A stretch of 64,000 bases of DNA from an uncultured Gammaproteobacteria bacterium (GTDB lineage: Bacteria > Patescibacteriota > Patescibacteriia > Magasanikbacterales > UBA922), in the NCBI GenBank assembly GCA_964566225.1, contig CAZMHV010000004.1:64248-128247 (forward strand), in the 5' to 3' direction. The notes below the pieces were generated by a model, which saw only the letters and a program-made list of their open reading frames with translations, searched no databases and was not told the DNA's origin. The position numbers were made by a program, and so were the translations under genes. This document shows positions 1-55,347 of the stretch, piece by piece. Each line of letters begins with the position of its first letter. Position 1 is the first letter of the stretch.

Positions 1-2
1 CG

Positions 3-113
3 CTCGAAGAGCTCGCCAAGAACGCCGGCCCGGACGCCCCCGCCGTCCGGAACCTCATCAACGACGTCAAGGTGACCGCGGAGAAGGTCGCCATGAAGGC
101 CGCCGGGCTCTGA
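3..113 (+). CDS. C-terminal fragment of a CDS running in from upstream (…LEELAKNAGPDAPAVRNLINDVKVTAEKVAMKAAGL*). It is possibly the AAA+ partner of the downstream vWA gene.
   Basis: Open frame 3 runs to a TGA at 111-113. A GGAGGAG RBS and the ATG of the next gene follow 18 nt later. GC3 is high. By analogy with the AAA+ then vWA order at 45.8-43.1 kb. Confidence 0.3.
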   Translation, partial: LEELAKNAGPDAPAVRNLINDVKVTAEKVAMKAAGL

Positions 114-131
114 ACCCGAGCGAGGAGGAGA

Positions 132-1820
132 ATGAGCAAGACGCAAAATGCTCCTCCGCTCGCCCGGGAGGAGCTGCTCTCAGCGATGGTCACGGACGCG
201 GATGCCTTCACCGCGCTCCGGTACCTCCGCTCGCGGGAAGAAACGCCCGCGATTTGGGAGCTTGAACGAAACGGCGCGAAGACATTGCCCGGCGTGACTG
301 CCGCTTTGGGTGACGTCTACCACTCCCTCTGGTCCGAAGGGGTGGATTTGAAGGATCGGACCAAGGTTCCCGCAAGTCGTCAGTACTGGCGTGGACTCCT
401 GGAAGAAACGCTCCCCACGAGCGCCTTCCACGAGCTCCATGCCAAGACCTGCGGGGACCGGCTGCTCTCCACCATGGGCACGGTGGAAGCGGCGAAGACA
501 ATTCTCAAGTTGGTGCCCAAGGCGGACGGCGAGAAGCTCGAGAAGATTGCTGAGGCGCAAGCCAAGGCAGATCAACTCGAGCAGGAAGCCTCGGACGCTC
601 AAGCTCACGCCGACGGCCTGGAGCAGATGGCCTCAGAAATGATGGCCAATGCCCAGGGTGGCGGCAAGCCCGGGAAGCCTGCTGGTGGGAACCCTTCGGG
701 GAACTCGCCGGGTGGTAACTCGGGCGGAATGAGCGCGGCCGAGGCACAGAACCTCGCCAATAAGCTCTCCGAGCAGTGGGCCGATGCGCAGGCAAAGGCT
801 GACGATGCTCGGGCCGCGGCCGACCAGGCGACGGCCGCAGCCAATGCTCAGGCCGAAGCGCTGATGGGGAAACCCGGAAGTGCCGAGGCCGAAGCCAAGC
901 TGCGTGAGCTGGCGAGGTTGGGCCAAGCGGCTCTCCAGGCCACCACTGCGAAGGTCACCGAGGTTTCGGAGACCATTCAAGGCTGGGGTCTGGAAAAAGG
1001 CGAGCTCGAGAAGATGGAGATCCCCGAGGCCATGGGGCTCCTCGAGAAGATGCGGAAGAACTCCGCCTTCAAGAGCTTCGCCACCCTCCTCGGTCGGATG
1101 CGTGCCATGGCCGCCAAAAAGGCACGCTCCAAGATCGAGGGTGAAGGGCGCCGGGTGACTCGCCAGGAAACTGGTCGAGATATCTCGCGCGCCTACCCGA
1201 GCGAGCTCGCCGCGCTCTCTCACCCCGCCACCCGCCTGCCGGCGCTCCTCCGATGGTCTCGAGGAGAGCTCCGGCTTCGTGGCCAAGAGACCAAGCAGAC
1301 GCTCGGCCGTGGAGACATTGTCGTCTGTGAAGACGGCTCGGGCTCCATGGATGGACCGAAGCAGCAGTGGGCCAAGGGAGTTTCACTCTCCCTGGCACAC
1401 TTTGCTAAGATCCAAAAGCGCGGCTTTGGCTGGATCATGTTCGACACCCGTGTGGTGAAGGATAAGGTTCGGCCGGGCGGCGTTCTGTCGGCAATCGACA
1501 TGCTCGATATTGCTGACAGCCGGTCGGGCGGAGGAACCAGCTTCGAAGCGCCGCTGAAGCGCGCTGTCGAGATGATCAAGGCGAAAGGTCTGAAGAAGGC
1601 CGACATCGTCTTTGTCACTGACGGCGAGTGCGCGGTCTCCGAAGCGTTCCTCGAGTGCTTCCTCGCCGCCAAAAAGGCGCTCGAGTTCACGGTCGTCACG
1701 GTTCTGTGCGACGTGGGTGAGAGCGCTCGAAAGACGGTCGAGAAGTTTTCCGACAAGGTCGAGCAAGTCTCGCAGTTCACGGTAGAAACTGCAGAGGCGA
1801 AGGTGTTCAATCACCTCTAG
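132..1820 (+). CDS. vWA-domain protein, CobT-like architecture. It has an N-terminal domain, an acidic/coiled low-complexity middle, and a C-terminal von Willebrand A domain with a MIDAS motif (DGSGSM…GGGT…TDG).
   Basis: A GGAGGAG RBS lies 4 nt upstream of the ATG. The vWA MIDAS motif DxSxS (VVCEDGSGSMDG), the T (GGGTSF) and a late D (FVTDGE) are present. GC3 is high. It is a paralogue of the 43095..44504 protein. Confidence 0.65.
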   Translation: MSKTQNAPPLAREELLSAMVTDADAFTALRYLRSREETPAIWELERNGAKTLPGVTAALGDVYHSLWSEGVDLKDRTKVPASRQYWRGLLEETLPTSAFHELHAKTCGDRLLSTMGTVEAAKTILKLVPKADGEKLEKIAEAQAKADQLEQEASDAQAHADGLEQMASEMMANAQGGGKPGKPAGGNPSGNSPGGNSGGMSAAEAQNLANKLSEQWADAQAKADDARAAADQATAAANAQAEALMGKPGSAEAEAKLRELARLGQAALQATTAKVTEVSETIQGWGLEKGELEKMEIPEAMGLLEKMRKNSAFKSFATLLGRMRAMAAKKARSKIEGEGRRVTRQETGRDISRAYPSELAALSHPATRLPALLRWSRGELRLRGQETKQTLGRGDIVVCEDGSGSMDGPKQQWAKGVSLSLAHFAKIQKRGFGWIMFDTRVVKDKVRPGGVLSAIDMLDIADSRSGGGTSFEAPLKRAVEMIKAKGLKKADIVFVTDGECAVSEAFLECFLAAKKALEFTVVTVLCDVGESARKTVEKFSDKVEQVSQFTVETAEAKVFNHL

Positions 1821-2030
1821 AGCTCGTACTCCTACCCAGTTCCCAGCAGTTGGCATCGCTGGTTGAGCTGTCCAACAAACCGCCACGAGGATTCGTAGTG
1901 ACCTCAAAACAAAATTTCACTGCATTGCACTTGGCCCGTCTAGCACATTGACGGGGCCAATCTTATCCTCACGAGCAATGGTGTTCGCGGGGAAAAGGTT
2001 TGGTTCAACCTCGAAAGTGGAGAAATAATC

Positions 2031-4037
2031 GTGGATACCAACAACATCAACCCCGCGTCGAATATTGTCACGCTCCTGGCCGAGCGTGGCAAGAATTACG
2101 ACAAGACGGGCGAGGTGGTGGGTTTCCACTTCCTCTCTCGGAAGAAGTCCTGCTTGGTCTTCTTCCCGCGGGGTATCAAATGCGAAGCAGGGAAGGAGTA
2201 CCGGATGGAGCTCCTTCCCATTGTCGAGCAAGGCGGCCAGGCCAAGCTCGATCGGGCTGGGAACCCGCTGTACAACTCCCGTCCATCCCCGCCGGTCGTG
2301 TCGGAGAAGTGGATCGAGGAGGGGGGCAACCTCCTTCACGTCCGCATCTCCACCGACTGGCGGCTCGAGGCGAAGCGGGTGGCGCTCCTCGAGACCAAGA
2401 AGCCTGCCACCCGCGAGAGGGAGCTCTACACCGACAAAAAGTATGAGTTGGTGTGGGGCACAGACCTGTTGTCGTCGGCGGTCATGGTCAAGCCCGAGAC
2501 TGTGGTTGCCCTGGAAGTGGAGGCCACGGACAATGGTGAGCTCGTTTGGAAAAAGATCAGCGAGCGTCGAGACTCCAAGCCCACGAGCAACTACTCTCTG
2601 GAGAAGTACAACCTCCGGGAGAATGAGAGCTCGTGGACCTGGAAGCGGATCGACATCACCCACGACCCCGCGGGCACGGTCTCGCTTCACCTGTACTTTG
2701 ATGAAGGCTTGGGCTACACGTCCGAGCACCATCACCGTACGGTGTGGGGCGACCTCCCCAAGTGGCTCAAGGACGAGCTTTTGGTGAATTACCCGATCTG
2801 CTCTTGCTCCCGCCAGCGGCTCGATCCCTCCAAGAATGCCGACGGATACTCGAAGTGCGAGATCTGTCGGACCGAGGAGAAGTGCGCCCGCTGTGGCAAG
2901 CAGCCCATCGCGGTGAAGGTGGTGAATAACTGCCTCATCTGCGATAGCTGCCGACCGCTCGTCGAGCAGGAGAACCTCATCCACGAGAAGGTGTCGGCCG
3001 AGAAGTTGGCCGAGCTGGCGGCCCAGGCCCAGCTCCTCCTCACAGGCAAAGTGTTCGAGGGGGAGACGGGCGAAATGGTGGCACGGACGTTGGTCGAGCA
3101 GCTCAAGGACGAGTCTGCTCGGCGTGAGGCTCTGCGGGTATGTGCCGGGTACCCCTGGTACTATATTTCGCAGGACTTCATCTTCGGGTCCAAGTTTGGG
3201 CTCGAAGCTCTGGAGATTCTGTGCCACATCAACCAGGCCAAGGGCAATGGCCTGGTGCGACTGGTCTCGTGGGTGATGGGCTACCATAAGACCACTGATC
3301 AGGACGGGGACTTCTACACCCGCACCCAGGTCAAGGGCGAGGCTCTGGCTCCGGAGATTTCTTCCTGGAGCACGTTCAGCGACCTGGCGGTCGGCGTCTG
3401 CATCTTCGACTTCGCCACTACTCGGCGGCGAGAAGAAGAACAGCGTCAGGCCGAGGCTGCCGAAAGGTCTCGCCTTGAGAAGCTGCTCGTCCATGACTAC
3501 GTTCGTGGCGACCTCGTGCTCGCCACCCGGATCGACGCCTTTGTCAAAGAGGCATTCCGGATCCGTGGTCACCATACCGTGGCTCTCCTCAAGAAAGAAG
3601 ATGGGGAAGCCTACGGACGTGGTGGTCGCACTGCGTCCATCGAGGAACAGTTCCCTGGCATCGACCACCAGGGGTTGGACTGGGCCGCAGGCCGGGATAT
3701 CGTTCCCGTGGCCTTCTGGGCTGAGACCAGCCTCTTTGGTCAGGTCAAGGTGATCGTTCCGACCGAGGGAAAGTTCACGTTCAAGACCGACCGGCACTTT
3801 CAGTGCACGGGGTGCGGTTGCATCGTGAATGTCGCGAAGCCTGACTGGAACATGTTCCGCAACGGGAACTCCATCAAGGTTTCGTGTCCTTCGTGTTATC
3901 GGTGGGACTGGGTGGATTCGTCCATCCAGAAGTCGCAGACCAAGCTCGAGGCGCCGAAGCCGGCTGTCACCAATAACGGTGGAAGCGTTACGGCTGATGC
4001 GTTGGCCGCCCTCAAGGCCAAGTTCGGCGGCCGCTGA
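2031..4037 (+). CDS. Hypothetical 668-aa protein with two Cys-rich zinc-ribbon-like clusters (CSCSRQ…CEICRTEEKCARCGKQ…CLICDSC and CTGCGC…CPSCYRW).
   Basis: Long ORF with strong GC3 bias and diverse amino-acid composition. The overlapping 725-aa minus-strand ORF is R/L/G-rich, as expected for an antisense frame. Confidence 0.55.
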   Translation: MDTNNINPASNIVTLLAERGKNYDKTGEVVGFHFLSRKKSCLVFFPRGIKCEAGKEYRMELLPIVEQGGQAKLDRAGNPLYNSRPSPPVVSEKWIEEGGNLLHVRISTDWRLEAKRVALLETKKPATRERELYTDKKYELVWGTDLLSSAVMVKPETVVALEVEATDNGELVWKKISERRDSKPTSNYSLEKYNLRENESSWTWKRIDITHDPAGTVSLHLYFDEGLGYTSEHHHRTVWGDLPKWLKDELLVNYPICSCSRQRLDPSKNADGYSKCEICRTEEKCARCGKQPIAVKVVNNCLICDSCRPLVEQENLIHEKVSAEKLAELAAQAQLLLTGKVFEGETGEMVARTLVEQLKDESARREALRVCAGYPWYYISQDFIFGSKFGLEALEILCHINQAKGNGLVRLVSWVMGYHKTTDQDGDFYTRTQVKGEALAPEISSWSTFSDLAVGVCIFDFATTRRREEEQRQAEAAERSRLEKLLVHDYVRGDLVLATRIDAFVKEAFRIRGHHTVALLKKEDGEAYGRGGRTASIEEQFPGIDHQGLDWAAGRDIVPVAFWAETSLFGQVKVIVPTEGKFTFKTDRHFQCTGCGCIVNVAKPDWNMFRNGNSIKVSCPSCYRWDWVDSSIQKSQTKLEAPKPAVTNNGGSVTADALAALKAKFGGR

Positions 4038-4205
4038 GTCTTTGCTATAAAGAAAAATCTTCTTGCCAGAAAAGGCGTGCAAGAAGTCATCCAAAATCGC
4101 CTTTTAAGTTTCGACTGGTTGGCACTGGTCTTGAGACTTTCAAAAGAAACGCCATGGGAGGTAGGTAACTCCCAAGAAAAAACATCTTACCAAAAACTCG
4201 GTAGA

Positions 4206-4280
4206 TCGGGACATCAAGCTTGCACAGCTCTGTCCCGAACTCCCACGAAATTTTTATTGATGTAGAAGTTTCATGGGAGT
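4206..4280 (+). repeat. Hairpin/AT-box module copy 1. An 8-bp inverted repeat (TCGGGACA N17 TGTCCCGA) is followed by ACTCCCACGAAATTTTTATTGATGTAGAAGTTTCATGGGAGT.
   Basis: A near-identical module recurs at 4904-4976. AACTCCC and GGGAGT form a second inverted pair around an AT-rich core. Confidence 0.55.
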
Positions 4281-4401
4281 CAAATCCAAACTATGGGCGG
4301 CTGGCAGCACCCAAAAGTTTTTCTCTCTATCTGCCAGAAACTGTTTGGAAACCATTGCAATAAGCCCCACGAAGAAATTCGACGGAAGTGTGGGGAAGTA
4401 A

Positions 4402-4719
4402 ATGCAGTGGTGGAGGAAAATGACAAAGAATCTCTTTGTTGTCATCTCCCGAGACGTGTGGTACGACAAAAAGACCACAGACTCGGTGATTGTCCACCTC
4501 GTTGAAGAGGGGGACAGTTTCTCCACCGGTGGCGGATCCTATGGCAACGAGTACAGCACGGATGTGTATGTATTTCTTGCCGTCGGTGTTACTGTCACCG
4601 ATGTGAGCGGGACAGACTCCAAGCTCTTTGCTCATCTGCGATCCAAGTTCGACGACTTGGGAGTGGTGAGTAATGAAGAGCTTCTCGAGAACGTGTATGC
4701 GTTCTTGAGAGCTCTTTAA
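4402..4719 (+). CDS. Small hypothetical protein (105 aa).
   Basis: ORF lying between the two hairpin/AT-box modules. Composition is plausible but no motif was recognised. Confidence 0.35.
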   Translation: MQWWRKMTKNLFVVISRDVWYDKKTTDSVIVHLVEEGDSFSTGGGSYGNEYSTDVYVFLAVGVTVTDVSGTDSKLFAHLRSKFDDLGVVSNEELLENVYAFLRAL

Positions 4720-4903
4720 GCGGATAGAGTCTGTTCAGAAGTCCTCCCCAAGGTCTTGAGCAGAGATGAAGGGGAGTGAATAAAGAAAGCGGATCGGCAT
4801 ATGCCGACGGGGTTGGGAGAAAGACCTGACTTTGAGCTGCCAGCAACCGTGCAGCAAGACCGCAAGCTTAGGGTGGTAACCTCAACAACCAAGCAACTCG
4901 GAA

Positions 4904-4976
4904 CTCGGGACAGGGTGAGCACTCATCTGTCCCGAACTCCCTCGAGATTTTTAAATATAAAAGTTTCAAGGGAGTG
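4904..4976 (+). repeat. Hairpin/AT-box module copy 2 (CTCGGGACA N15 TGTCCCGAG, then ACTCCCTCGAGATTTTTAAATATAAAAGTTTCAAGGGAGT).
   Basis: Direct comparison with 4206-4280. It lies 58 nt upstream of the 5034 ATG. Confidence 0.55.
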
Positions 4977-5033
4977 TGAATTTTCTGCTCCAGAGTAGTA
5001 ATAGAAGCAACGAACTCAAGCAAGGACGATACC

Positions 5034-5720
5034 GTGAATACGATGAAAAAGTTCTGGACGATGAAGGATGGTCAGGTTGGCACGGCTCACAAAAACCGCC
5101 ACGGCGAGGAGGTCGACTTCCGGCCGGGGGAGTGTTTTCTTGAGTGGGTTGAAGGAGGCAGCAGCCAACGACCTGGCATGATGAGCGATGTGCCGGACGA
5201 GGAGGCCATCAAGTCTGCGATCTCGCTGTTGCGGGTCGTTCTGGTTCCTGCCAAGGGTGTCCAGTGCGAGAGTCTCGTCCTTCCTTCCACGAGCATCGAC
5301 TACGAGTCGAGCGTGGACAATCGCGGTGTGGTCATGGTGCGAGTCAATCGCATGGTGGCCACCTACGAGGGACTGGAATTTCAGTCTAGCAAAGACAGGC
5401 TGGGCGCAGCGATTCTGGTCAACTTCTACTCCCTCGTCGCCCGCCAGGCCCAGCGACAGGCCGCAGTCGAGCAGCTGGAGCAGCTGCGTCAGCAGCACCC
5501 GGCTGCCACGGCCCTCACCCCGCGTGAGGCCATCACGTTCGGAAAGCCGGTCTTCGCCAAGCTCCGGCATCAGAACCCTCTGGACTGGAAGAAGGCGGCG
5601 GTGAAGGTTCAGCAGAATTTGTTGAGACACTTCGCAATCACCGACATCCGGATCCTCCCGACGTGGGCACAGGACCTCGAGACCCTGCGCAGCCACATCT
5701 TGGAGCAGCGAGTCGGTTGA
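5034..5720 (+). CDS. Hypothetical protein (228 aa).
   Basis: Strong GC3 bias in this frame. The overlapping minus-strand 285-aa ORF has antisense-like composition. Confidence 0.5.
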   Translation: MNTMKKFWTMKDGQVGTAHKNRHGEEVDFRPGECFLEWVEGGSSQRPGMMSDVPDEEAIKSAISLLRVVLVPAKGVQCESLVLPSTSIDYESSVDNRGVVMVRVNRMVATYEGLEFQSSKDRLGAAILVNFYSLVARQAQRQAAVEQLEQLRQQHPAATALTPREAITFGKPVFAKLRHQNPLDWKKAAVKVQQNLLRHFAITDIRILPTWAQDLETLRSHILEQRVG

Positions 5721-5954
5721 TTTTTCCACACTCCCCAAAGCTGTGTTCTTGCCCTCTCCAAAAAAGAGGGCAAGCGCCAGAAGATCCCGGGCATCCTGCC
5801 TGGGTTCCACCTCAATTCTTGAGGCGTACTTCATGGGCGGAGCGTTCAACCCGAACTGCTCCGCCCTCCACACAGAAAGAGAAAATTACAAAAGAGAATC
5901 TTCGAATACTCTCTCCTCGAGGAATCTCCAACATTTTTTTCTCTTTCGGTGTGG

Positions 5955-5995
5955 AATAAAAAATACTGTTTACGCAACAGTATTTTTTGTTTTCA
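5955..5995. terminator. Bidirectional rho-independent terminator (AAAAAATACTGTT-TACGC-AACAGTATTTTTTGTTTT) at the high-GC/low-GC boundary.
   Basis: Perfect 9-bp stem with an A-run 5' and a T-run 3'. Confidence 0.6.
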
Positions 5996-6014
5996 AAATT
6001 TTGTATAAAATAAT

Positions 6015-16577: not shown

Positions 16578-17072
16578 CCGTTGGTTGCCACGATCCTACC
16601 CACCCTCACTGGCGAGTAGGACCTTTTGGTTTACAACATATGTCATAAAACAAAAAATCCTACCCGCATGGATAAGATAACCTTCGTTTTTCCAATGTAT
16701 ATTGGAAACGTATCTTTCCCTATTCGGGCTGGAGTTACCACCTTGTTTTGACTTTTGACAAGCGCAAAGTAGGTTGGTTGGAGGTCATCGGGCCAGGTCC
16801 CTCGCTCCTTTCTCGATAATAAATTGACAAAATTTAGAGTATCAAAAGTTGCATGTGCTGTCAATATATTTATGCACATGTATTTAAAAAATTGGGGTCA
16901 GAATATTGACAAATTGGCCAAATTTTGATAGCCTCATTTGAGGTATATGTTTTTTCAGAAGGAAAAAGAGCATTTATATTCTTTTTTTCCTCCTGAAAAA
17001 CATCAACCTACAACATTTTGTCATACCAGGGGCACTCAATTTTTGAGTGATGACAAAAGACGGAGAAAATCC

Positions 17073-17840
17073 ATGATCGTTCACGTCGCTGGTGCGAATC
17101 GGGTTCCTCGTACGGAGAATTTTCTCAAGGGTCTTGGCGTCCGCATGGACTTTTTTGCGGACTGGGGGTACCCCGGTATGTACCGGGTCTGTTGCCAGGA
17201 GGATATCCTGCGGCTCGTGTCGCAGGTTGGTCCCAATGATCCGAATCGGTTGGTCCTGGACTTTCACATCCACGGTCTCAATCAATGGTCTCGGCTTCCA
17301 GTGGTGAGTGAGGACCATCGAAAAGTCTTCCTCAACACCTGGCTGCGACCCTATCTGCCCTTGTGGCAGATTGCAGAGAATATCTTGAAGCTGCAGCCCC
17401 CCCGCATCTTGGAGGGGATGCCCAGCATCAAGGTGGTCGCCCGTGAGAAGCCCGAGGAAAATTGGTCGGACGAAAACGTGAAGAATCGACAGAAACAGAA
17501 AAAGGGAAAATCCCTGGTCTGCTGTCCTTCACGCTACGAGTATTCTCTGGTTCTTTCGGACGATTTTCTGGTGAAAGTGCTGCTTCTCATCCCTGTCCGA
17601 GGGTTCCGGCAGGATTTCCACCGGATCATCGAGCTCTTTGAGCAGGGGGTTCTGGACGAGAACCTGACCATCCACGCCCTGCGTGAGCTCATCCTGTGTG
17701 TGCCGCAGGACTGGGATGGTCCACTGATCAAAGACACCTTCTCTCAACTGAAGTGGCCTCCACTCCCAACTGAAGTGGCCTCCACCCCAAGCGGCCAAGT
17801 CCCGGCGACGTCCGTTCCGCCGGACACGGGTCACCCCTGA
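17073..17840 (+). CDS. High-GC hypothetical protein (255 aa).
   Basis: A GGAG RBS lies 7 nt upstream of ATG 17073. GC3 bias is strong. The 3' end contains a 21-bp tandem duplication. Confidence 0.5.
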   Translation: MIVHVAGANRVPRTENFLKGLGVRMDFFADWGYPGMYRVCCQEDILRLVSQVGPNDPNRLVLDFHIHGLNQWSRLPVVSEDHRKVFLNTWLRPYLPLWQIAENILKLQPPRILEGMPSIKVVAREKPEENWSDENVKNRQKQKKGKSLVCCPSRYEYSLVLSDDFLVKVLLLIPVRGFRQDFHRIIELFEQGVLDENLTIHALRELILCVPQDWDGPLIKDTFSQLKWPPLPTEVASTPSGQVPATSVPPDTGHP

Positions 17841-17986: not shown

Positions 17987-19399
17987 TTAATATCGGTAGT
18001 GATCTGGTTTGTATGGTCCGTTTTCGTTTACATTGAGGTACGCAGCTTGCGCAGGGGTCAACTTGGTGAGTTTCACCCCAAGTTTTGCGAGGTGCAAACG
18101 TGCCACTTCTTCATCAAGTTCTTTGGCCAGGCGATACACACCAACTTTGTACACATCTTTATTTTTCCACAAATCAATTTGGGCAAGTGTTTGATTACTA
18201 AATGAATTACTCATCACAAAACTTGGGTGGCCCGTGGCACAGCCAAGGTTCATGAGACGTCCTTCAGCCAAGAGGAACATTTCTTTGCCACTTGGAAAAA
18301 TATATTTATCTACTTGAGGTTTAATGTTTACTTTTTGTACACCTTCGGCAGTGTCGAGGCGTTCTACTTGAATTTCGTTATCAAAGTGACCAATGTTACT
18401 TACAATCGCTTGATCTTTCATGCCACTCATGTGTTCAAACGTAATCACATCTTTGTTGCCAGTGGTAGTCACATAAATATCTGCGCGACCGAGTGTATCT
18501 TCAATAGTGGTGACTTCGTATCCTTCCATGGCAGCTTGGAGTGCGCAAATTGGGTCGATTTCTGTGACGATCACGCGGCAGCCTTGGCCTTTGAGTGCTT
18601 GTGCGCAGCCTTTGCCCACGTCTCCGTATCCACACACGACAGCAACTTTTCCACCAATCATCACATCCATGGCACGGTTGAGTCCGTCCACAATTGAGTG
18701 ACGGCAACCATAGATGTTATCAAATTTACTTTTGGTAACAGAGTCGTTTACGTTGATGGCAGGGAAGAGCAATTTGCCTTCGTTCATCATTTGGTACAAG
18801 CGGTGCACACCTGTAGTTGTTTCTTCACTCACACCACGAACATTTTTGGCAACAGCAGTCCAACGAGTTGGATTTTCACTGTAGGTACGTGCAAGGAGTT
18901 TCATGAGTTCTTGGTAGTCTTTGCCTTCTTTGGAATAATCTGCAGTAAGCAAACTTGGATTTTCTTCTACTTCTTTTCCTTTGTGAATAAGCAGTGTAGA
19001 ATCTCCACCATCGTCTACAATGAGGTCTGGGCCTGTGCCATTGCCAAAGTCCAAGGCTTTTTCAGTACACCACCAGTATTCTTCAAGCGTTTCACCTTTC
19101 CATGCAAATACAGGAATTCCCGCAGCAGCAATAGCCGCCGCAGCATGGTCTTGGGTAGAAAAAATATTACAACTTACCCAGCGAACAGTGGCGCCAAGAG
19201 CGGCGAGGGTTTCAATGAGCACGGCTGTCTGAATGGTCATGTGGAGACTGCCCATGATTTTGACGCCCTGGAGAGGTTTTTCGGCAGCATATTTATTGCG
19301 AATCGACATGAGTCCTGGCATTTCGTCTTCGGCAATTTCAATTTCTTTGCGGCCCCAATCTGCGAGGGTAATATCTTTTACTTTGAAGTCTTGACTCAT
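17987..19399 (-). CDS. ahcY: S-adenosyl-L-homocysteine hydrolase (adenosylhomocysteinase).
   Basis: Full-length 470 aa with conserved AhcY blocks ([19 protein letters not shown]-binding [16 protein letters not shown]). Confidence 0.95.
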
Positions 19400-38384: not shown

Positions 38385-38642
38385 TTACACATAGTCAGTG
38401 TCGGGGTCACTTACCGACAAGACTTTGGTCTCAGCGTCCAGCTGTTGAGCAATGGTGCCCCAGCGGGGTCGCATTGCTCTTCCTCTGAAAAAGATCATGC
38501 CCACACGTACTGTGAGCCGATCTCTACATCTTTCGCATTTCACCACGAAGTCGTGGTTTATTGCGAAAGGTGGGACTTCCCACTTTGAGAACCCACAGCT
38601 GCAGTGGGTCTCGGTATGAGCCTGTTCCCACCAGAGGCTCAT
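38385..38642 (-). CDS. Possible small zinc-ribbon protein (HCSCGF…CERCRD).
   Basis: Four Cys in a CxC…CxxC arrangement. No clear RBS and the region is highly structured. Confidence 0.25.
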   Translation of the reverse strand: MSLWWEQAHTETHCSCGFSKWEVPPFAINHDFVVKCERCRDRLTVRVGMIFFRGRAMRPRWGTIAQQLDAETKVLSVSDPDTDYV

Positions 38643-39157
38643 ATTCTTGATTTGTTTCTGGAGTCGACGTCGTTGTCGACGTCTATACTGCCAAGAACAA
38701 AATAAGTCTAATTGGAGTGCGTATCGGAGGATGTCTGATGAGATCCTCCAAATCCACTCCGGTGGTCTGGCTTTTTGGGTTGTGACTTTCACCAAAAAGC
38801 GTTTTTTTGTAGGCGCCCCCCCTGGCCTAGTCCAGGGTCCTTCCGGGGGGGAAAGGAACCCTGACGTGCCGATGTTGAAGAAAGTTTCTTCTTCGACAAC
38901 GGCTACCCCCGACCCGTCTGGAGAGGTCTCCGATGTTGGGTGGTAGTAAGCCAACCCATCTGTAAGCCCCCACCTCCAGGGCCTATCAAGGGTACCGTTT
39001 CGGCACCCCTTGTGCCCAAGGTCTGGGGAGTGTCCACACCCCCCCGCACAATATCGGGGGGTTGTGATGACCTCTCTTTTTTGTGTGGTAGCCAGTTTGG
39101 AGGAAGTAGAGGTCTCCAGGTTGACCTCCTCTTCTTCTTGTTGTTGGAGCTTAAGTA

Positions 39158-39451
39158 TCATCCTTCTTTCCACTTTCCCTCTCCAGGGGAAAGGCCAAAT
39201 ACCTCCTCCCACTCAGGACGGAGGTTTGCGGGGGACTCCGCTGATGAGGCCTGTGAAATGAGGAACAACATCGCCTCCTTCCGAGGCGACTTCTCGGGTT
39301 CCGCGGCGATAAGCTGGCTTCCGATCACCTTGAGGGGGACGTACCCCCTTCGGTGGTAGTAGACAGCCACTTCCTTCACCACGCGAACGAAGTGGGGGGA
39401 AGAGATCCCTGCAGGAATCTCAATAATCGCCGCAATGAGAGTCTCGATCAT
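39158..39451 (-). CDS. Small hypothetical protein (about 98 aa).
   Basis: A GAGGAG RBS lies 6-7 nt upstream of ATG 39451. Confidence 0.3.
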   Translation of the reverse strand: MIETLIAAIIEIPAGISSPHFVRVVKEVAVYYHRRGYVPLKVIGSQLIAAEPEKSPRKEAMLFLISQASSAESPANLRPEWEEVFGLSPGEGKWKEG

Positions 39452-39624: not shown

Positions 39625-39742
39625 ACGCACGTCTTGGTAAACCTGCGCTTGCCAAAGAAAATAATATTTTTATTCACTTTGGCAATATTCAATTGTAAGG
39701 ATCTTCACTCTCTACACCACATTCATTAGGCTGCTGTAACAT
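39625..39742 (+). repeat. 118-bp direct repeat, copy 1. It is identical to 46009-46126 and followed by about 100 bp of diverged similarity.
   Basis: Exact identity read in the sequence (ACGCACGTCTTGGTAAACCTGCGCTTGCCAAAG…GCTGCTGTAACAT). Confidence 0.9.
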
Positions 39743-40070
39743 CCTTCATCCAATTTTTCACTTTGCTTTTGTGAAACCAAAGTTACTTTTGCATTTGGGA
39801 CTTTCTTGTTGTAGTAGCGACTTGTTAAATTTGATCTGCATCAAATGTTGAAAGTTGTTGCTACATAATCTTGACAGGAATCTTTTTTTCTGTTAAAGTG
39901 TAAGTAACATGATAGTGTTCGTAGATAACTACGGATAACCTACCTTCGCAGGATAGTTCCGACTCAGTCGGGACTATTTTTTTATTTATCCACAGAAAAT
40001 GCCCTCACGGGACGTCCAACTTTAACTTTTCTTCAGGTACTTTGTGTTATGCTCACTTTCGGTGGACTCA

Positions 40071-40144
40071 AGGGCCCGTAGTTTAATGGTAGAACACTAT
40101 CATGCGAAGGTAGGGGCACGGGTTCGATTCCCGTCGGGTCCACC
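40071..40144 (+). tRNA. tRNA-Arg, anticodon GCG, with encoded CCA.
   Basis: Hand-folded cloverleaf. Acceptor GGGCCCG/CGGGUCC, D-arm GUUU…GAAC with GG, anticodon stem CUAUC/GGUAG with loop AUGCGAA, T-arm ACGGG-UUCGAUU-CCCGU, and a 3' ACCA. Confidence 0.85.
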
Positions 40145-40457
40145 ACCCAAAGCAATCTTGTAAACACAAGGTTGTTTTTGTTTAGAAAGAATTTCTCCCC
40201 TTCACAAACTTCAACGAATTGAAATTTCTGCAGGGTTGGCGAGTGAGTGCTTCTCTCTCGCCGACCGGTGCGTTTGGCTTCTCGCCGTGGAGGATACTGC
40301 TTCCTCTTGGCTCACCACTTTGTTCTTTTGGAACATGCAGGTGACTCATACCTTGATTTTCAGCATAGGATTTTGTGCTGAGTGAAACCCGTGAGTGGCA
40401 GCTTGTCCCGAGACCTTGTCGGTCTCTGAGTGGGATGTTACCAGGTTTCTGTGTGGT

Positions 40458-41420
40458 TTAGCCGCGGTCGATCTCAGCCTCGGGCAGGATGTGCCCGGCG
40501 GCTCGAAGCTCGGCCTGACGGCCGCCGTTGGTGAACCAATGGGGTGCGTCCTTGGTTACGCTATCCTGGCGGTACGGGATGGTTCCGTCCACCAGGGCGT
40601 GCGTGGCCCAGTACTCCCGGCTCTGGTTGCCGCGCTCGTTCGGGTCGCCCGGGAAGGGCTCCCCAATATGGCCGACGTAGGCCTTGTGCAGGGAGTAGCT
40701 GTCTCCCCTGCGTCGAAGAACGATGCTGAGATACTGGCACGTTTCGGCCTTACGGCCGCGGACGAACCGACCCCAGTTGTGCCCACCGAGATGGGCGTAA
40801 AACACTTCATCGTGGTCTCGAGTCTTCACGCACGCGGTTCGGCCGAAGCCACGCCGTCCAGAGTCGAACTCGCGCAGGACGTAGTCGGCGCCCATCCCTG
40901 GGGCCACTTCGTCGATTTCGATGACATTGACACAATCGACCATGAAGTCGTATTGCTTCAGTGTCATCGAGTCTTGGATTCGGGGAGCGATGTAGACCTG
41001 TTGGCCAGTGGCAGTCTGAACTACCTTCGGCCTGCGGGTCATCGACATCAGCCACTCTTCGGGGGTAGACCCCTGAAGCCATGGCCGGTCGAAGAACTTC
41101 TTCTTTGCCACCTCTGGGTTGGGAAACTGCTCAGTCGCCTCGATCAGGAGGAGGAACTCTCCCCAGCTGATTGTGTGTGTGTCGGAGTGATCCTGGCCAC
41201 GGGCCAAGATCTGGATCTTTTGGGATCCCTTCACTCCTTGGAAGAATTCGCCCCAGTGTCGAATCTCCCGGTTGAGGGGCCGCTCACCCGGGATGACCAC
41301 GCGTTGAAACATTTGGTTCTTTTGATTGAACCGATAGTTTTCTCCGAAGTTGGTGAAGTCTACGACCACGTCATGGGTTCTACAGAAGAAGTACACTTTC
41401 ATCTGGAGATTCTTGAACAT
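40458..41420 (-). CDS. Hypothetical protein (320 aa). It is the last gene of the AAA+/vWA cassette.
   Basis: Diverse composition. The overlapping plus-strand 372-aa ORF looks antisense. No confident motif. Confidence 0.5.
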   Translation of the reverse strand: MFKNLQMKVYFFCRTHDVVVDFTNFGENYRFNQKNQMFQRVVIPGERPLNREIRHWGEFFQGVKGSQKIQILARGQDHSDTHTISWGEFLLLIEATEQFPNPEVAKKKFFDRPWLQGSTPEEWLMSMTRRPKVVQTATGQQVYIAPRIQDSMTLKQYDFMVDCVNVIEIDEVAPGMGADYVLREFDSGRRGFGRTACVKTRDHDEVFYAHLGGHNWGRFVRGRKAETCQYLSIVLRRRGDSYSLHKAYVGHIGEPFPGDPNERGNQSREYWATHALVDGTIPYRQDSVTKDAPHWFTNGGRQAELRAAGHILPEAEIDRG

Positions 41421-41573
41421 CTTTTTTTCTCGACATGCCGGGGAACTGCCGGTGCAGTCGAAGCGTGCGTCTCAATTGCATTGCTTCGATCTCTTTTGCA
41501 AAAAAATTTGTAACAGAGATCGAAGGGGAAGGTGCATTTCCCTTCGAGTGCTTTGGCTCCTCATAGGAGCAGG

Positions 41574-42242
41574 TTAGAGGCGCGTGGTCACCTTCTCGAC
41601 GCGGTACCAGACGTACCGATCGAAACGGAAACCTTGGCCTCCACCCCCGCGAAACTCGATTTTCGCGTGGTCATTCTCCTTGACTGCCTCGCTCCGCAGG
41701 AGAGGGAGTTCCTTGGCGGAGAGGCGCTCGAAGCCTGCCTCGGGCACTATGGCCACGAGAGCTTCGAAGCCTCCATTCTGGAACTCCTGCTCCGTCTGCT
41801 CGGCGTTCGGAATGTCGCGGTGCGTGACCACCACATCCGAGCCGAATAGTCGAGCAAGCTCGGCAGTCTGCCGAGTGGTCGGGGCGAACCGGGAGAGCCA
41901 CATGATGCGTTTGTGGCCTCCCGAAACCGGCGATACCTCATCGAATTTCTTGCGGATCTCGAGGATCCGGTCGAAACCGAGAAAGGTGCTCCGTTCGTGC
42001 GACATCATTGGCCAGAGGGGAAAAACCCCCTTTCGGCAAAGTCCGTCGAGGATGCTGGTGGGTGCCACCAGCACGATCTCATCGAACTTGCCGGATTGTA
42101 TCCGAGCCATGATGTCGTTCACCCCATCCGGGCTGAACGGCCGATCGTCAATCGTGACGTCGACCTCTCCCATAATCCTTTGAAGCTCCTGCATCTTCCC
42201 TTCATCGGGGTGATGGCGTGAGAGCCAGAGGATTTTCTTCAT
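41574..42242 (-). CDS. Hypothetical protein (222 aa) made of two tandem homologous halves of about 105 aa (KKILWLSRHHP… and KRIMWLSRFAPT…).
   Basis: Internal duplication seen in the translation. The overlapping plus-strand ORF is S/R/P-rich and looks antisense. Confidence 0.5.
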   Translation of the reverse strand: MKKILWLSRHHPDEGKMQELQRIMGEVDVTIDDRPFSPDGVNDIMARIQSGKFDEIVLVAPTSILDGLCRKGVFPLWPMMSHERSTFLGFDRILEIRKKFDEVSPVSGGHKRIMWLSRFAPTTRQTAELARLFGSDVVVTHRDIPNAEQTEQEFQNGGFEALVAIVPEAGFERLSAKELPLLRSEAVKENDHAKIEFRGGGGQGFRFDRYVWYRVEKVTTRL

Positions 42243-43094: not shown

Positions 43095-44504
43095 TTAGAA
43101 TCTGTCGATACCGACACCGCCCGTCGAACGGGCGAACTCGACCAATGATTTGTTCGCCACCTCCATGGCGAAGCCGTGGACCCGGGTGCCCGGGATTTCT
43201 GACTTCTTGAGAGAGGAAACGGACTTGTCATCGTCGGTCAGGAGAACGATCTCCGGCCGGTAAAGAGCTTCACCAGCCTTGATTTTTTCGTCCATGAATT
43301 TGTGGGCCGCGCGGACCGAGGCAGGAATGTCCGTGCCACCGCCCGTGAAGTTGCTCGCCGCGAATTTCTTGATAAGTTCGCGAGCTTCCGCAGGAGTAGC
43401 CGCGTGCATGACCTTCCCTAAGGAAGTGTCGAACACGCTAATCCACACTTCCGCGTCTCCGGTCAGGACTGCCTTGAGGCGGTTCATCACCACCCCGCTG
43501 GCCTTCCAATGCCTCTTGCCCTTCATCGACCCGGAGCCGTCGAGAAGGATGAAGATCGCCTGCCTTTTCTCCACCGTAGTGACTCGCTCCCGGACCTGGA
43601 GCTGACCACTCACCGCTTGGTAGAGAAACAAAGTGTGGTTTTGCTGCCGCGTCGCCCAGTCAGTGTGGCTCACACGGTTCAGCTCGCCCATGTGCTTGAT
43701 CGGTCGACGGCGAGTTTCCTCGCCTGCCAGATTCACTTCCTGCTTCTTCTGCTTGCGCGTCTGAAACGGGGTGAACTGATCCATCTGGCGGGAGATATCG
43801 AGCATCACCCGACGGTCGCATCCCGCCACGAGGTCCTCGGCCACCTGCAGCTTATTGAGCTGTTGGTGACCTGAACTCTGGCCATCAGTCTCAATCTCAT
43901 GATTCGCCCCGTCGGGGTCCATCATGTCGAGCTCTTCCTTGGAGAGACTTTCGACCATGTCCATGATCTCGTGAAGGGATTCGGCGACCCCCTCTGTTCG
44001 TTCTGATTCTGCGAAGATAGGGAGCGGCTCACCCCCACCTTCGCTAGCCGCGCCCTGCCCGCCCTTTTGCTGGCTCAGGAGCTTCAATAGCCCCATTGCC
44101 TGTTCGAGTGGGCTTGCGCCGGGGAACTTTGACAAGTCCACCGTCTGCAAGAAGTCGCAGACGTTCTGATGGTACCTCATCGAGTTCTCGGCGTGGGCGG
44201 TCACGGCCTCTGCACGATTGGTTGTACAGGTTTCATCCCCAAAAAGGCCTCGCACCTTGGTGGGGATCTGCCAGTTGCCATACGAGTCGGGAGCCGGCAG
44301 CTGCTCCTCAATTCGTCGCGTCACTTCGTCTCGGTAGCTCGACGGAGGGTTGACGCGTCCCCCCGCCGCCAGATTTGTGAGATCGGCCACAAGGTCTGGG
44401 GCGAACCCCTTGAGGCCAATCCTCCCCGCCATCTCCTTCATCTCCTCCTTTGACGGAGGAATGTAGGCAGCGGGCGGAGAAGTGCGGAACGTAAACTGGC
44501 TCAT
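43095..44504 (-). CDS. vWA-domain protein, CobT-like, with an acidic linker and a C-terminal MIDAS vWA domain.
   Basis: MIDAS motifs ILLDGSGSMKG, GGGTDI and LLTDDD. It is a paralogue of the 132..1820 protein. Confidence 0.7.
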   Translation of the reverse strand: MSQFTFRTSPPAAYIPPSKEEMKEMAGRIGLKGFAPDLVADLTNLAAGGRVNPPSSYRDEVTRRIEEQLPAPDSYGNWQIPTKVRGLFGDETCTTNRAEAVTAHAENSMRYHQNVCDFLQTVDLSKFPGASPLEQAMGLLKLLSQQKGGQGAASEGGGEPLPIFAESERTEGVAESLHEIMDMVESLSKEELDMMDPDGANHEIETDGQSSGHQQLNKLQVAEDLVAGCDRRVMLDISRQMDQFTPFQTRKQKKQEVNLAGEETRRRPIKHMGELNRVSHTDWATRQQNHTLFLYQAVSGQLQVRERVTTVEKRQAIFILLDGSGSMKGKRHWKASGVVMNRLKAVLTGDAEVWISVFDTSLGKVMHAATPAEARELIKKFAASNFTGGGTDIPASVRAAHKFMDEKIKAGEALYRPEIVLLTDDDKSVSSLKKSEIPGTRVHGFAMEVANKSLVEFARSTGGVGIDRF

Positions 44505-44738: not shown

Positions 44739-45840
44739 CTACAGGCGGGTGTGCTTGAGGCTGAGCTTCTGAGCCTCGGCCGACTTCTGGGAAGCAGCCT
44801 CCCGGAGCTGCTTGCGCTTTTCCGTGAGACCATCCGTGACCTTGAGATTGGCCACCTTGTCCTGGAAGGAGAGGAGCCGCAAAGCCGCCTGGTTGCACTT
44901 GACCGGACTCTGCGTCCGATCAGCCGCCTCGAGGTCAGAGAGCAAGCTGTTCAGCTCGCCCTCAGCCTCAACCAGCAACACCTCGGCCGTCGCCCGCTCG
45001 CTCGCCTTGTCGAGCTCGGTTTTCAGGTTCTCGGCCAAAGCCTCGAACCCATCGACGAACTTGAGGTCAAGGAGATCGACCTTCTCGACCTTGGCCGAAC
45101 CGCGCAGCGCTGCAGAGGTCTTGACGACTCCAAGCGCGTGCACGGCCGACCGCGGCGAGATGGGCCGCCCCTGCTCGGCGAGCTTGCCGAGCATCTCGGC
45201 GAGCACCGAGCTCATCCCGTTGAGGTCGGCTCCCGGCAAGCGGGGCGCGACCTTCACGAACAGCTCGCTGTAATCGGCCGCCTTATAGGACGGCCATTTC
45301 ACATTGAGTTGAATCGGGAATCGCTCGATCAGGGCGTGCGCAGCGGGGCCGAGCTCGCTGATTTCCGCTGGGTCTTTGTTGGTGAGGGCGATGATGACCT
45401 TCGTCTTCATCGCGAACACCTGTGACCCCTTTCGGAGCTTGCGGGCGGTCAGCGTGTCCTTGAGCGCGAGGAGAACCGACGCCGGAGCGTCAAAGAGCTC
45501 CTCGAACACCGCGTAGGGTCGCGCGAGGAAGCTCAGCTCCGGGAAGTACCGGAGCACCTTCTCGGTCTCGAGCGCCCGGAAGTCGAGGCCGCCCCAGAGG
45601 GTAGCCTCGTCCATTCCCTCCCCGAAGCTCTGAACGTGGACCTCGTTATCGAGGTCCGTGACGATCTCGGCCAGAGCGGTCTCTATCATCTCGGACTTCC
45701 CGTGCCCCCCGGGTCCCCAGAGGAGCACGTTTTTGCCCGACGTGATTGCCAGAGCAAGGACCCGGGCCAGGTCCTCACACTTGATGAAATCCCGCTCGAG
45801 GCGAGACTTCAACTTGTCGAAGAGATTAGTAACCACGCAA
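44739..45840 (-). CDS. MoxR/CobS-like AAA+ ATPase (AAA_5 type).
   Basis: Walker A LLWGPGGHGKS, Walker B/sensor VIIALTN, and arginine-finger region. GTG start 45840 with a GGAGG RBS 6 nt upstream. The longer ATG-initiated extension is probably not translated. Confidence 0.7.
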
Positions 45841-46008
45841 ACCTCCGTAGCGCGATTGTTGCGCCTTGGATTGGGCTTGCCCTGGGGAGGGCAAAGCACG
45901 TTTGTGTTTCTCCTCCCGCAGAGCAAAGCCCTGGTTTGGGTCCCCATTTCTATTTTTTTTCAAAAATAGTCAGGGAACCCAAACAGTTGCGTAATGACCT
46001 AATATTAA

Positions 46009-46126
46009 ACGCACGTCTTGGTAAACCTGCGCTTGCCAAAGAAAATAATATTTTTATTCACTTTGGCAATATTCAATTGTAAGGATCTTCACTCTCTACA
46101 CCACATTCATTAGGCTGCTGTAACAT
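46009..46126 (+). repeat. 118-bp direct repeat, copy 2 (identical to 39625-39742).
   Basis: Exact identity. Confidence 0.9.
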
Positions 46127-46906
46127 TTTTTACTCAATTTTTCTTTGGAGTCTTGTGAGGCTCAAAATACTTGTGAGTTCAAAACTTTCTTGTTGTAGTA
46201 GCGACTGCCTTTCCCTCTATACAATCTTGCGACTGTTTAAAGAGAAGGCGCACTCGGTACTACTCTCGTTCTGAGGCGAGTGTAGACTGACCGCGAGGGA
46301 GTTGCTGCTCGACTTTCGTCAAGGGCATCTATCAACCTCCGCCGGTTCTCTTAGTCCGGTCGGATGACCGGATCAAGAGCAATATCTTACCCGGTCATTC
46401 GACCGGGCAAGGGTTCAGAATTGAAAATTTCTTTCACCGATAGGAGTCTCTCTCCTTCACATTGGTCAAAGAAATTAGTTCATTGTAATGGTTTGGGGAC
46501 TCAACCTTTTTGCACCCTGTCTCGCTCAACTCTCTCTCTTGAGGGCAAAGCAGGTATTGTTTAAAAAGGGAATCGTGCAAACCGTTTAGTCCTAGACCCT
46601 TCCCAAAGGCAAGCATCGCTTTGGTACTTTTGATCAAGGTCTAAACGTTTTGCGCGAAAGTGTAAAAAACGCTCTTTCTGGTGAGAGAGCGTTTGAGTTT
46701 GGTAACTCTATCTGGGGCTCTCTCTTTCCTTTGATAGTTCAAGTGTTTGAGTTGTGGTTACCTGTTCTTGGTCTTTCAGCGTAACGAGCTAGTATAACAT
46801 AAAATCACAAATATGTCAATACTGAACCATGCATATACAAAATATATATATTAAATTTATCTAAATTTAGCTAAATATATAAAAACTCAATATGTAAAAT
46901 AACCAC

Positions 46907-46935: not shown

Positions 46936-46958
46936 ACATGTACAATAAGCCAAAAAAT

Positions 46959-55096: not shown

Positions 55097-55347
55097 TGGG
55101 GATCTCCTGGGGGGGTGCGGGGTTATATATACCGCATGTAGGGGCAAAATTGCCCAGTGTAGAGGGGGATTTCCTCTTTCAAAAGTAAGAAATATCTTTC
55201 TTTTGAAACAAAAAATACCCAAAATAATGAACAGGAGAGAATATACCAAATAGGACGTTTTGTCAAGGGGGTTATTACACAAATAAAAAAAGAGTCCTGT
55301 TGCAAGGACTTTTTGTTTTTATGAGTTGGATATTTGGGGAGTCTACT

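Follow-up and report, generated by a model that had tools for sequence, protein, structure and literature searches.

The 64,000-nt stretch of DNA analysed here (contig CAZMHV010000004.1 of assembly GCA_964566225.1, positions 64,248 to 128,247; the window) opens with a GC-rich segment at about 1-5900, which we call island 1 and which carries three adjacent genes: the 3' end of a MoxR-type AAA+ ATPase gene (AAA1), the gene of a von Willebrand factor A (vWA) domain protein (vWA1), and the gene of a 668-aa protein with a conserved cluster of eight cysteines. This three-gene MoxR-vWA-large-protein module is recurrent, widespread and, as far as sampled, specific to Patescibacteria. With modest confidence, we read island 1 as the downstream two-thirds of an accessory island rich in GC at third codon positions (GC3), residing in a Patescibacteria genome near Candidatus Magasanikbacteria and equipped with a mobile, diversifying ternary MoxR-vWA module for conflict or host interaction. 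The features that make up the module are as follows.

1..113, forward strand: 3' end of AAA1 (last 36 codons and stop), placed by identity with Logan contig L003, which has the complete gene at L003:940-2145
122..130, forward strand: Shine-Dalgarno sequence GAGGAGGAG, read from the sequence, between the AAA1 stop (TGA 111-113) and the vWA1 start (ATG 132)
132..1820, forward strand: vWA1, a ViaA-like adaptor of 562 aa, from Pfam, NCBIfam and PHROG matches and homologues
2031..4037, forward strand: 668-aa large protein, the third component, from homologues, linkage to the vWA gene and an AlphaFold2 (AF2) model
2799..2951, forward strand: 8-Cys cluster of the 668-aa protein, conserved in 71 sequences
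3804..3896, forward strand: second Cys cluster of the 668-aa protein, with a similar module in 9 of 71 members
3987..4034, forward strand: C-terminal amphipathic helix of the 668-aa protein, with the motif in 37 of 71 members

The ATPase and the vWA protein

The missing upstream part of AAA1 is supplied by L003 (SRR16481186, 4017 nt, same sample), a contig found by an exact-sequence look-up of the vWA protein, which matches window 1-1985 at every one of the 1985 shared bases (100% identity) and reaches 2032 nt farther upstream. The full AAA1 is 401 aa long, its final 36 residues identical to the window fragment, and has Pfam matches to bpMoxR (PF20030, 8e-22), AAA_5 (2.7e-12) and AAA_lid_8 (9.6e-11), so that the truncated gene in which an earlier note on this DNA had suspected an AAA+ ATPase does encode one. 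An AAA_5-type module, Walker A, Walker B and an AAA lid place it in the MoxR class. It is preceded by a 170-aa open reading frame (ORF; L003:424-936), the family of which matches phrog_23674 and the C-terminus of a 320-aa protein encoded elsewhere in the window (40533-40892, reverse strand).

RavA-ViaA is the best sequence match for both AAA1 and vWA1. AAA1 aligns with E. coli RavA at E 8e-32 across RavA residues 22-330, where GPPGVAKT (Walker A), FFADEVW (Walker B) and the AASNELPE segment are all aligned. It is not RavA proper, scoring 126.8 bits against an equivalog cut-off of 681 (NF010054) in an alignment that ends at RavA residue 330, and it is without the RavA LARA domain and the C-terminal triple-helix (401 versus 498 aa).

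AAA1 and vWA1 are tightly coupled. The junction is as the earlier note had described it, an in-frame 36-codon fragment running to TGA 111-113, then GAGGAGGAG, then ATG 132. Within vWA1, a helical, Ala-rich N-terminal part is followed by a C-terminal vWA domain (about nt 1284-1817) that matches VWA_2 (2.6e-6; 28.5 bits, cut-off 27) and VWA_CoxE (1e-5) in Pfam, and the protein matches phrog_24053 at 1e-52. The NCBIfam ViaA match (7e-13) lies over the vWA domain and, at 48.5 bits, does not reach the equivalog cut-off of 500. In an alignment of 23 homologues the metal ion-dependent adhesion site (MIDAS; DxSxS...T...D) is complete, with D401, S403, S405, T469 and D497 invariant, and the N-terminal 380 residues are likewise well conserved. 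A complete MIDAS in a gene beside a MoxR gene is what is expected of a ViaA-like MoxR cofactor; no propeller Pfam match and no domain after the C-terminal vWA domain were found in vWA1.

The large Cys-rich protein

A word-indexed protein search returned only 1-3 relatives of the 668-aa protein, and the rest were found by an exhaustive HMMER profile search of 1.84 billion representatives, which gave 156 cluster representatives at E <= 1e-3 and 100 at E <= 1e-30. Family members are 475-1226 aa long, and the match is mostly limited to the first ~500 residues. The 8-Cys cluster pointed out in the earlier note (C257, C259, C276, C279, C285, C288, C304 and C307; CxC...CxxC...CxxC...CxxC) withstood alignment of 71 members: C257, C259, C304 and C307 are invariant, and conservation is 90% or higher at the remaining four positions. 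The region presumably forms two zinc sites, and it matches zinc-finger profiles weakly (GATA, ZZ, uS14; E 0.1-1). The 5-Cys cluster proposed alongside it is present in the window protein (C592, C595, C597, C619 and C622), in a region of low predicted local distance difference test (pLDDT) score, but an F.C.CG..(18-32)..C..C module within the last 90 residues occurs in only about 9 of the 71, and this cluster is an optional C-terminal zinc-ribbon module. An amphipathic helix with a Gly/Lys tail, VTADALAALKAKFGGR, falls within the last 24 residues in 37 of 71 members, compared with 1 of 71 for a control segment, and is a candidate docking peptide for the ATPase/vWA pair.

AlphaFold2, run with the family alignment, gave pLDDT >90 for residues 7-490. 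The predicted fold consists of a five-strand barrel (12-63), a domain of very long beta-strands (81-238), an irregular Cys region (~252-307), a helical domain (308-434), a long coiled coil (461-525) and a low-confidence tail; beyond the ~490-aa conserved core the order is coiled coil, variable region, optional zinc ribbon and conserved C-terminal helix. Foldseek returned no match to this model below E 0.04 in the PDB and a single marginal match in BFVD (E 7e-4, template modelling (TM) score 0.09), and a profile search of PDB sequences gave zinc-finger noise alone (E > 0.1). Sub-threshold Pfam matches to TRAM (E 0.004 and 0.022) fall at the N-terminal barrel in 2 of 72 proteins. The described kinds of third component were considered in turn: a beta-propeller was rejected, since the strands are 13-18 residues long and Foldseek gave no significant propeller match, and a VMAP, an iSTAND NTPase or a double FtsH was rejected, since neither the 668-aa protein nor its 70 homologues have such a Pfam match.

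A 725-aa antisense ORF (1917..4094, reverse strand) covers the whole of the 668-aa gene, and several more antisense ORFs lie over the vWA gene. Such ORFs are expected by-products of high GC, and we took the forward-strand ORF at 2031..4037 as the gene because homologues were found on that strand and none for the antisense ORFs.

Recurrence and divergence of the module

Eleven further loci were fetched (L005, L086, L087, L089, L092-L094 and L095-L098). Their common gene order is small ORFs, a bpMoxR ATPase (400-428 aa), a vWA protein (559-623 aa) and a Pfam-less large protein (516-895 aa). The last three genes are adjacent in the window joined to L003 and in L086, L087, L089, L093, L094, L095, L097 and L098, and partly visible in L005 and L096. 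Large-protein homologues were recognised in these loci by tblastn (E 1e-16 to 1e-137), and in 11 of the 11 loci where the region is visible they come immediately after the vWA gene; the large protein of L092 is reduced to a 207-aa remnant. The arrangement therefore has the generic form of a ternary system, MoxR, vWA and one further protein in conserved linkage, and we found no description of such a cassette in Patescibacteria in the literature consulted. Full-length homologues of vWA1 number at least 233, with identities of 46-93%, and those with a named organism are assigned to WWE3, Gottesmanbacteria, 'Patescibacteria group bacterium' or simply 'bacterium'. A single-sequence query of GTDB representative genomes with the vWA protein returned zero relatives.

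The host of the window belongs in the same broad group. Its FtsH is 71% identical to a protein from a Candidatus Magasanikbacteria metagenome-assembled genome (MAG); two better matches (75%) come from MAGs deposited as 'uncultured Gammaproteobacteria', and most of the remaining matches are to Patescibacteria MAGs.

The closest of the fetched cassettes shows where the module diverges. L086, from another sample, encodes a vWA protein 93% identical to vWA1, and its DNA is 85-97% identical to that of island 1 across the 170-aa gene, AAA1 and vWA1; where the large-protein gene begins, identity falls to 56-78%. The protein identities run 95%, 93% and 60%. Because identity drops there, the third gene is either evolving much faster than the chaperone pair or being exchanged by recombination.

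The neighbourhoods in other genomes contain PIN, HicB, Phd and Csx3-domain genes. In L089, L092 and L094, Cas_csx3-domain proteins (113-421 aa) and PIN, HicB and Phd-type genes are encoded in a GC-rich stretch between a TrmB-family gene and the MoxR gene.

Composition of the island and the question of misassembly

Window positions 1 to ~5900 have a GC content of 0.60-0.65, compared with ~0.40 in the remaining window, and at the right edge of island 1 (~5900-6000) GC drops from 0.56 to 0.31. The edge is marked by one further feature.

5957..5988, no strand assigned: bidirectional terminator-like hairpin AAAAAATACTGTT-TACGC-AACAGTATTTTTT, from the sequence and the GC profile

The contrast extends to codon usage. 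GC3 is 0.73-0.91 in island genes (0.91 in AAA1; 0.75-0.80 in the segment at the window start) compared with 0.23-0.41 in host genes, CGG makes up 35% of island Arg codons versus 2% in host genes, and TCG 28% of island Ser codons versus 6%.

An abrupt 20-point change in GC accompanied by different codon usage is what would be seen if GC-rich segments of another organism had been misassembled or mis-binned with a low-GC Patescibacteria contig, and Logan contigs do break at repeats within the island. Against such an artefact, an independently assembled Logan contig (L004, 18 kb) connects low-GC host genes with island 1, crossing the boundary at 5.9 kb and reaching window position 4843, and the spacers within the island are AT-rich like the host. 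The same GC-rich cassette also lies between low-GC genes on NCBI, ENA and JGI contigs of other samples (L087, L089-L091, L093, L094, L095 and L097). Since the contrast recurs in six other assemblies, with loci drawn from NCBI, ENA, JGI and Logan (L005, L087, L089, L093, L094, L095 and L097), and given the AT-rich spacers, we consider a chimeric assembly very unlikely. The bias towards GC goes with this gene set from host to host.

Two lone genes elsewhere in the window (16938-17840, forward strand, and 54392-55282, reverse strand) have island-like GC3 values of 0.62 and 0.68 amid low-GC host genes; neither has a Pfam match or a homologue in the fetched loci.

A second cassette and its genomic locus

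A second MoxR-vWA cassette lies in another GC-rich island of the same window (island 2, 39.8-46.0 kb).

44739..45947, reverse strand: AAA2, MoxR-type ATPase (Pfam bpMoxR 1.1e-11, AAA_5 1.1e-6; GC3 0.83)
43095..44504, reverse strand: vWA2 (Pfam VWA_CoxE 1.7e-6, VWA_2 3.1e-6; DGSGSM, GGGT and TDDD motifs)
40458..42242, reverse strand: accessory genes for proteins of 222 and 320 aa (tblastn E 1e-12 to 1e-15; phrog_23674 7e-8)

The earlier note had called the two vWA proteins paralogues and had asked for their pairwise alignment. The alignment is significant and restricted to the vWA domain (32% identity over 134 aa, E 5e-6), and the ATPases are similarly distant (27% over 230 aa, E 1e-5). Both cassettes are GC3-rich, both run from AAA+ to vWA, and each ATPase has PF20030 as its top Pfam match, but the word paralogue is too strong. 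Because AAA1 matches E. coli RavA far better (8e-32) than it matches AAA2, and the NCBIfam RavA model gives E 1.3e-36 for AAA1 versus 4.5e-4 for AAA2, we regard the cassettes as different MoxR-vWA subfamilies and not as recent paralogues. The further claim that they are of one system type is supported by two shared accessory families. The 170-aa protein encoded upstream of AAA1 has a homologue in the C-terminus of the island-2 320-aa protein (E 1.5e-12), and the 222-aa protein consists of a small ORF product in tandem duplicate, the single-copy form being encoded immediately before MoxR in L087 and L089. The large protein, in contrast, is absent from the second cassette, a profile search having found no homologue in any window ORF.

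Island 2 is bracketed by AT-rich 198-nt direct repeats (39625-39822 and 46009-46206) that are 87-88% identical, and a tRNA-Arg(GCG) gene lies just inside the left one (40072-40145). The repeat recurs at L086:335-641 (82-92% identity), upstream of the type-1 cassette there (that is, one of the island-1 kind), together with a homologous tRNA gene (L086:24-99, 76% identity). The repeat core is better conserved than the neighbouring genes and contains the palindrome TTGCCAAAG-N19-CTTTGGCAA; an att-like site is one possibility, and a shared operator or leader another. Rfam gave no match for the 198-nt repeat or for the intergenic repeats of island 1 described below. The L086 tRNA is called as a 76-nt tRNA-Ser(TGA) and is unusual among Ser tRNAs in having no long variable arm. 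We also considered tRNA-Arg(GCG) as an island helper for GC-rich codons and rejected this, since CGT and CGC already make up 64% of Arg codons in host genes, which marks it as an ordinary tRNA of the host, and the island-enriched CGG is not read by it.

Directly downstream of the left repeat is a third GC3-rich operon, encoding proteins of 165, 275 and 152 aa. The 275-aa product (38385-39212, reverse strand) is Cys-rich, with CSCG...C..C motifs and a weak PHROG match; as a relative of the 668-aa family it was rejected by profile search.

On its other side, island 2 adjoins a TrmB-family gene (46938-47738, forward strand), with the gene of a 940-aa protein also flanking it (47714-50536, reverse strand). 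The type-1 MoxR gene of L087, L092, L093 and L094 is preceded, at a distance of 4-7 kb, by a TrmB-family gene that stands at the left edge of the cassette-bearing cluster, which suggests that the TrmB-adjacent locus is a conserved variable locus. Islands 1 and 2 thus represent versions of a single type of neighbourhood, tied to a single variable locus. In three of those four genomes a large protein with weak acetyltransferase matches is encoded beside the TrmB-family gene. As regards a mobile element, direct repeats bracket island 2 and a tRNA gene lies within it, integrase and structural genes were not seen in either island or at the related loci, and the left end of island 1 falls outside the window.

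Relationship to known MoxR-vWA systems and to phages

The cassette resembles several characterised systems and matches none of them. As in RavA-ViaA, the ATPase gene precedes the vWA gene, and the vWA domain is C-terminal to a helical N-terminal part; unlike that pair, the cassette scores far below the equivalog cut-offs (127 versus 681 and 48 versus 500 bits), shows no LARA domain and no LdcI, Frd or Nuo context, and always has a third gene of its own attached. The MoxR-vWA-centric ternary conflict systems described by Kaur, Burroughs, Iyer and Aravind in 2020 (PMC7159879) use VMAP, iSTAND, FtsH or beta-propeller proteins as third components, fuse variable effectors to the C-terminus of the vWA protein, and are the source of PF20030, which stems from the beta-propeller class with its vWA-propeller fusion (PMC7159879). 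Shared with our cassette are a MoxR protein, a vWA protein and an obligatory third component, more than one divergent system per genome, a rapidly diversifying partner, and a variable, island-like genomic setting. The cassette differs in having Patescibacteria as hosts, which lie outside the coverage of that study, and in having no recognisable effector domain. By the tests applied here, the module belongs to none of the described ternary classes (VMAP, iSTAND, FtsH, beta-propeller), nor to RavA/ViaA proper.

That MoxR-vWA pairs act on clients is a general principle (PMC9976466, PMC13036017), and the client-specific remodellers NorQ-NorD, CoxD-CoxE and CbbQ-CbbO offer a second point of comparison. 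They share with the cassette an operon in which a MoxR ATPase, a MIDAS-bearing vWA adaptor and a client are encoded side by side; of the two Pfam matches of vWA1 one is VWA_CoxE, and the putative client here would also bind metal. The pair might, by this analogy, be a dedicated metallochaperone and insert or exchange Zn or Fe in the 8-Cys protein as a housekeeping or stress function, possibly related to RNA, with no part in conflict. The eight invariant or near-invariant cysteines lie in the conserved core, the putative client gene neighbours those of the chaperones, an arrangement shared with the nor, cox and cbb operons (PMC9976466, PMC13036017), the weak TRAM-like N-terminal matches in two members fit the modelled five-strand barrel, and the TrmB-adjacent locus is syntenic in several genomes. 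The putative client is, however, an 8-Cys protein and not a respiratory or carbon-fixation enzyme, the composition is foreign and the evolution of the putative client fast. A metallochaperone would also have to accommodate the strongly foreign codon usage, a large protein that diverges quickly relative to its neighbours, has a variable C-terminal region and was lost in L092 but for its remnant, and a second, different MoxR-vWA cassette in the same genome. We consider this explanation somewhat unlikely.

Phages offer a third comparison. The PHROG family matched by vWA1 includes gp63 of Bacillus phage 0305phi8-36, with which vWA1 aligns over ~500 residues at ~30% identity (2e-42), and there is a further match in Moorella phage MTATph1 (9e-37); in both phages the ATPase gene lies just upstream. 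Together with p618/p892 of ATV (Acidianus two-tailed virus) and with gp66/gp63 of 0305phi8-36 these are precedents for ATPase-vWA pairs in viruses, and the island could derive from a Patescibacteria phage or another mobile element, as its remnant or its cargo, with the pair serving virion or tail assembly or host takeover. Homologues of the 170-aa protein in the jumbo phages GAP32 (GAP32_368), CBB and Milchi (E 9e-22 to 3e-20) and in Erwinia phages (~5e-18) are 36-40% identical and sited among phage tRNA genes, and the deviant composition and the 198-nt repeats with a tRNA gene, at island 2 and again before the L086 cassette, would suit such an origin. On the other side, the phage pairs are only 28-35% identical to the cassette proteins, capsid, portal, terminase, tail and integrase genes are absent from all 12 loci, and three scans of IMG/VR viral contigs returned zero relatives. 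The large protein has no phage homologue, none being encoded downstream of the vWA gene in 0305phi8-36 or MTATph1 and the only structural match in BFVD being the marginal one given above. We judge a phage origin unlikely. The earlier note's suggestion of defence cassettes or phage modules remains unproven on both counts, with distant jumbo-phage homologues in its favour and no relatives in PADLOC or IMG/VR. A known anti-phage defence system was rejected for want of a PADLOC match.

A possible mechanism and the case for conflict or host interaction

By analogy with RavA-ViaA, NorQ-NorD, CbbQ-CbbO and CoxD-CoxE, AAA1 would form a hexamer that vWA1 bridges to a client, and ATP hydrolysis would remodel the latter. 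The adjacent large protein is the most likely client; it may be engaged by way of an acidic residue that the MIDAS site binds, or by its own conserved C-terminal helix. With its conserved core and highly variable C-terminal region, the large protein would then be the output of the system. We favour a role in conflict or host interaction over housekeeping because of the divergence of the large protein, its variable C-terminus and the island-like composition of its surroundings.

Several observations weigh against this preferred role. The eight conserved cysteines fit a plain metal-insertion client equally well, and the recurring TrmB adjacency is as compatible with vertical inheritance at one fixed locus as with an insertion hot spot. 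Neither an integrase nor a transposase was seen in the islands or at the related loci. The vWA domain of the cassette is C-terminal and carries no effector, effector-associated domain (EAD) or propeller, unlike the described ternary systems, and Pfam scans of 71 large-protein members gave nothing recurrent and no nuclease, protease or toxin effector domain. Ten proteins of both cassettes had no match in PADLOC-DB 2.0 at E <= 0.01. Finally, the interaction among the three proteins and the function of the module, including complex formation, the client relationship and the choice between conflict and metal insertion, are matters that we infer by analogy.

Tentatively, and on balance doubtfully, the conflict or host-interaction reading can be taken further. 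The GC-rich islands (~60% GC, GC3 0.7-0.9, in hosts of 35-50% GC) may be a lineage-specific, compositionally autonomous family encoding a new ternary system, in which a third protein of new fold, zinc-binding, possibly RNA-binding and hypervariable in its C-terminal region, would be armed or released by the ATPase via its C-terminal helix. Episymbionts would then use the system in conflict or host interaction, and its GC bias would come from unusual transfer or recombination, for example GC-biased gene conversion at a hypervariable locus.

Other features of island 1 and its surroundings

The remainder of island 1 holds two intergenic elements and two ORFs.

4195..4290, forward strand: twin-hairpin intergenic element, copy 1 (minimum free energy (MFE) -38.1 kcal/mol, z -6.5)
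4402..4719, forward strand: 105-aa ORF, an uncertain gene (GC3 0.63, weak support)
4893..4985, forward strand: twin-hairpin intergenic element, copy 2 (MFE -39.0 kcal/mol, z -6.8)
5034..5720, forward strand: 228-aa orphan protein (GC3 0.77, codon usage of island type)

All four ORFs that the earlier note had placed in this segment (132..1820, 2031..4037, 4402..4719 and 5034..5720) were recovered at those coordinates, and the 668-, 105- and 228-aa products, which it had found unrecognisable, have no Pfam, PHROG, NCBIfam or PADLOC match. For the 105- and 228-aa ORFs, zero homologues were found in any fetched locus or in the family libraries searched. A counterpart of the 228-aa protein is called as a 225-aa gene on L004.

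In copy 1 the two hairpins are GGGACA...TGTCCC followed by ACTCCCAcGAAA...TTTCAUGGGAGU. The motif has four near-exact matches in the window, all in island 1 (two per element, one on each strand), and two three-mismatch matches elsewhere, giving a total of 6 versus 0.63 expected. A third copy at L086:1950-2040 (-33.6 kcal/mol) has a first stem that differs in sequence and still pairs. The window copies and that of L086 have z-scores of about -6.5 and no clear U-tract. Positions 4843-4901, which precede copy 2, are repeated at L003:1-57 (95%, blastn), and this is why the Logan contigs break next to the twin-hairpin element.

Outside the islands, a SAM-I riboswitch was called at 16707-16822 (reverse strand) with 44.5 bits, against an Rfam gathering score of 44.4, and an S-adenosylhomocysteine hydrolase gene (17987-19399) lies near it.

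Implications

MoxR-vWA pairs are a general remodelling device, and the function of each is set by its client. To the known client families the module adds a candidate with ~490 confidently predicted residues that are structurally unmatched and eight conserved cysteines, from a family seemingly confined to the Candidate Phyla Radiation, a group whose genes are still mostly uncharacterised. Host-unlike codon usage in many divergent lineages, at a recurrent locus adjacent to TrmB and tRNA genes, bears on the means by which ultra-small episymbionts take up, retain and express DNA that looks foreign. If the module does serve in defence or host interaction, the concept of ternary conflict systems would reach reduced, non-multicellular bacteria.

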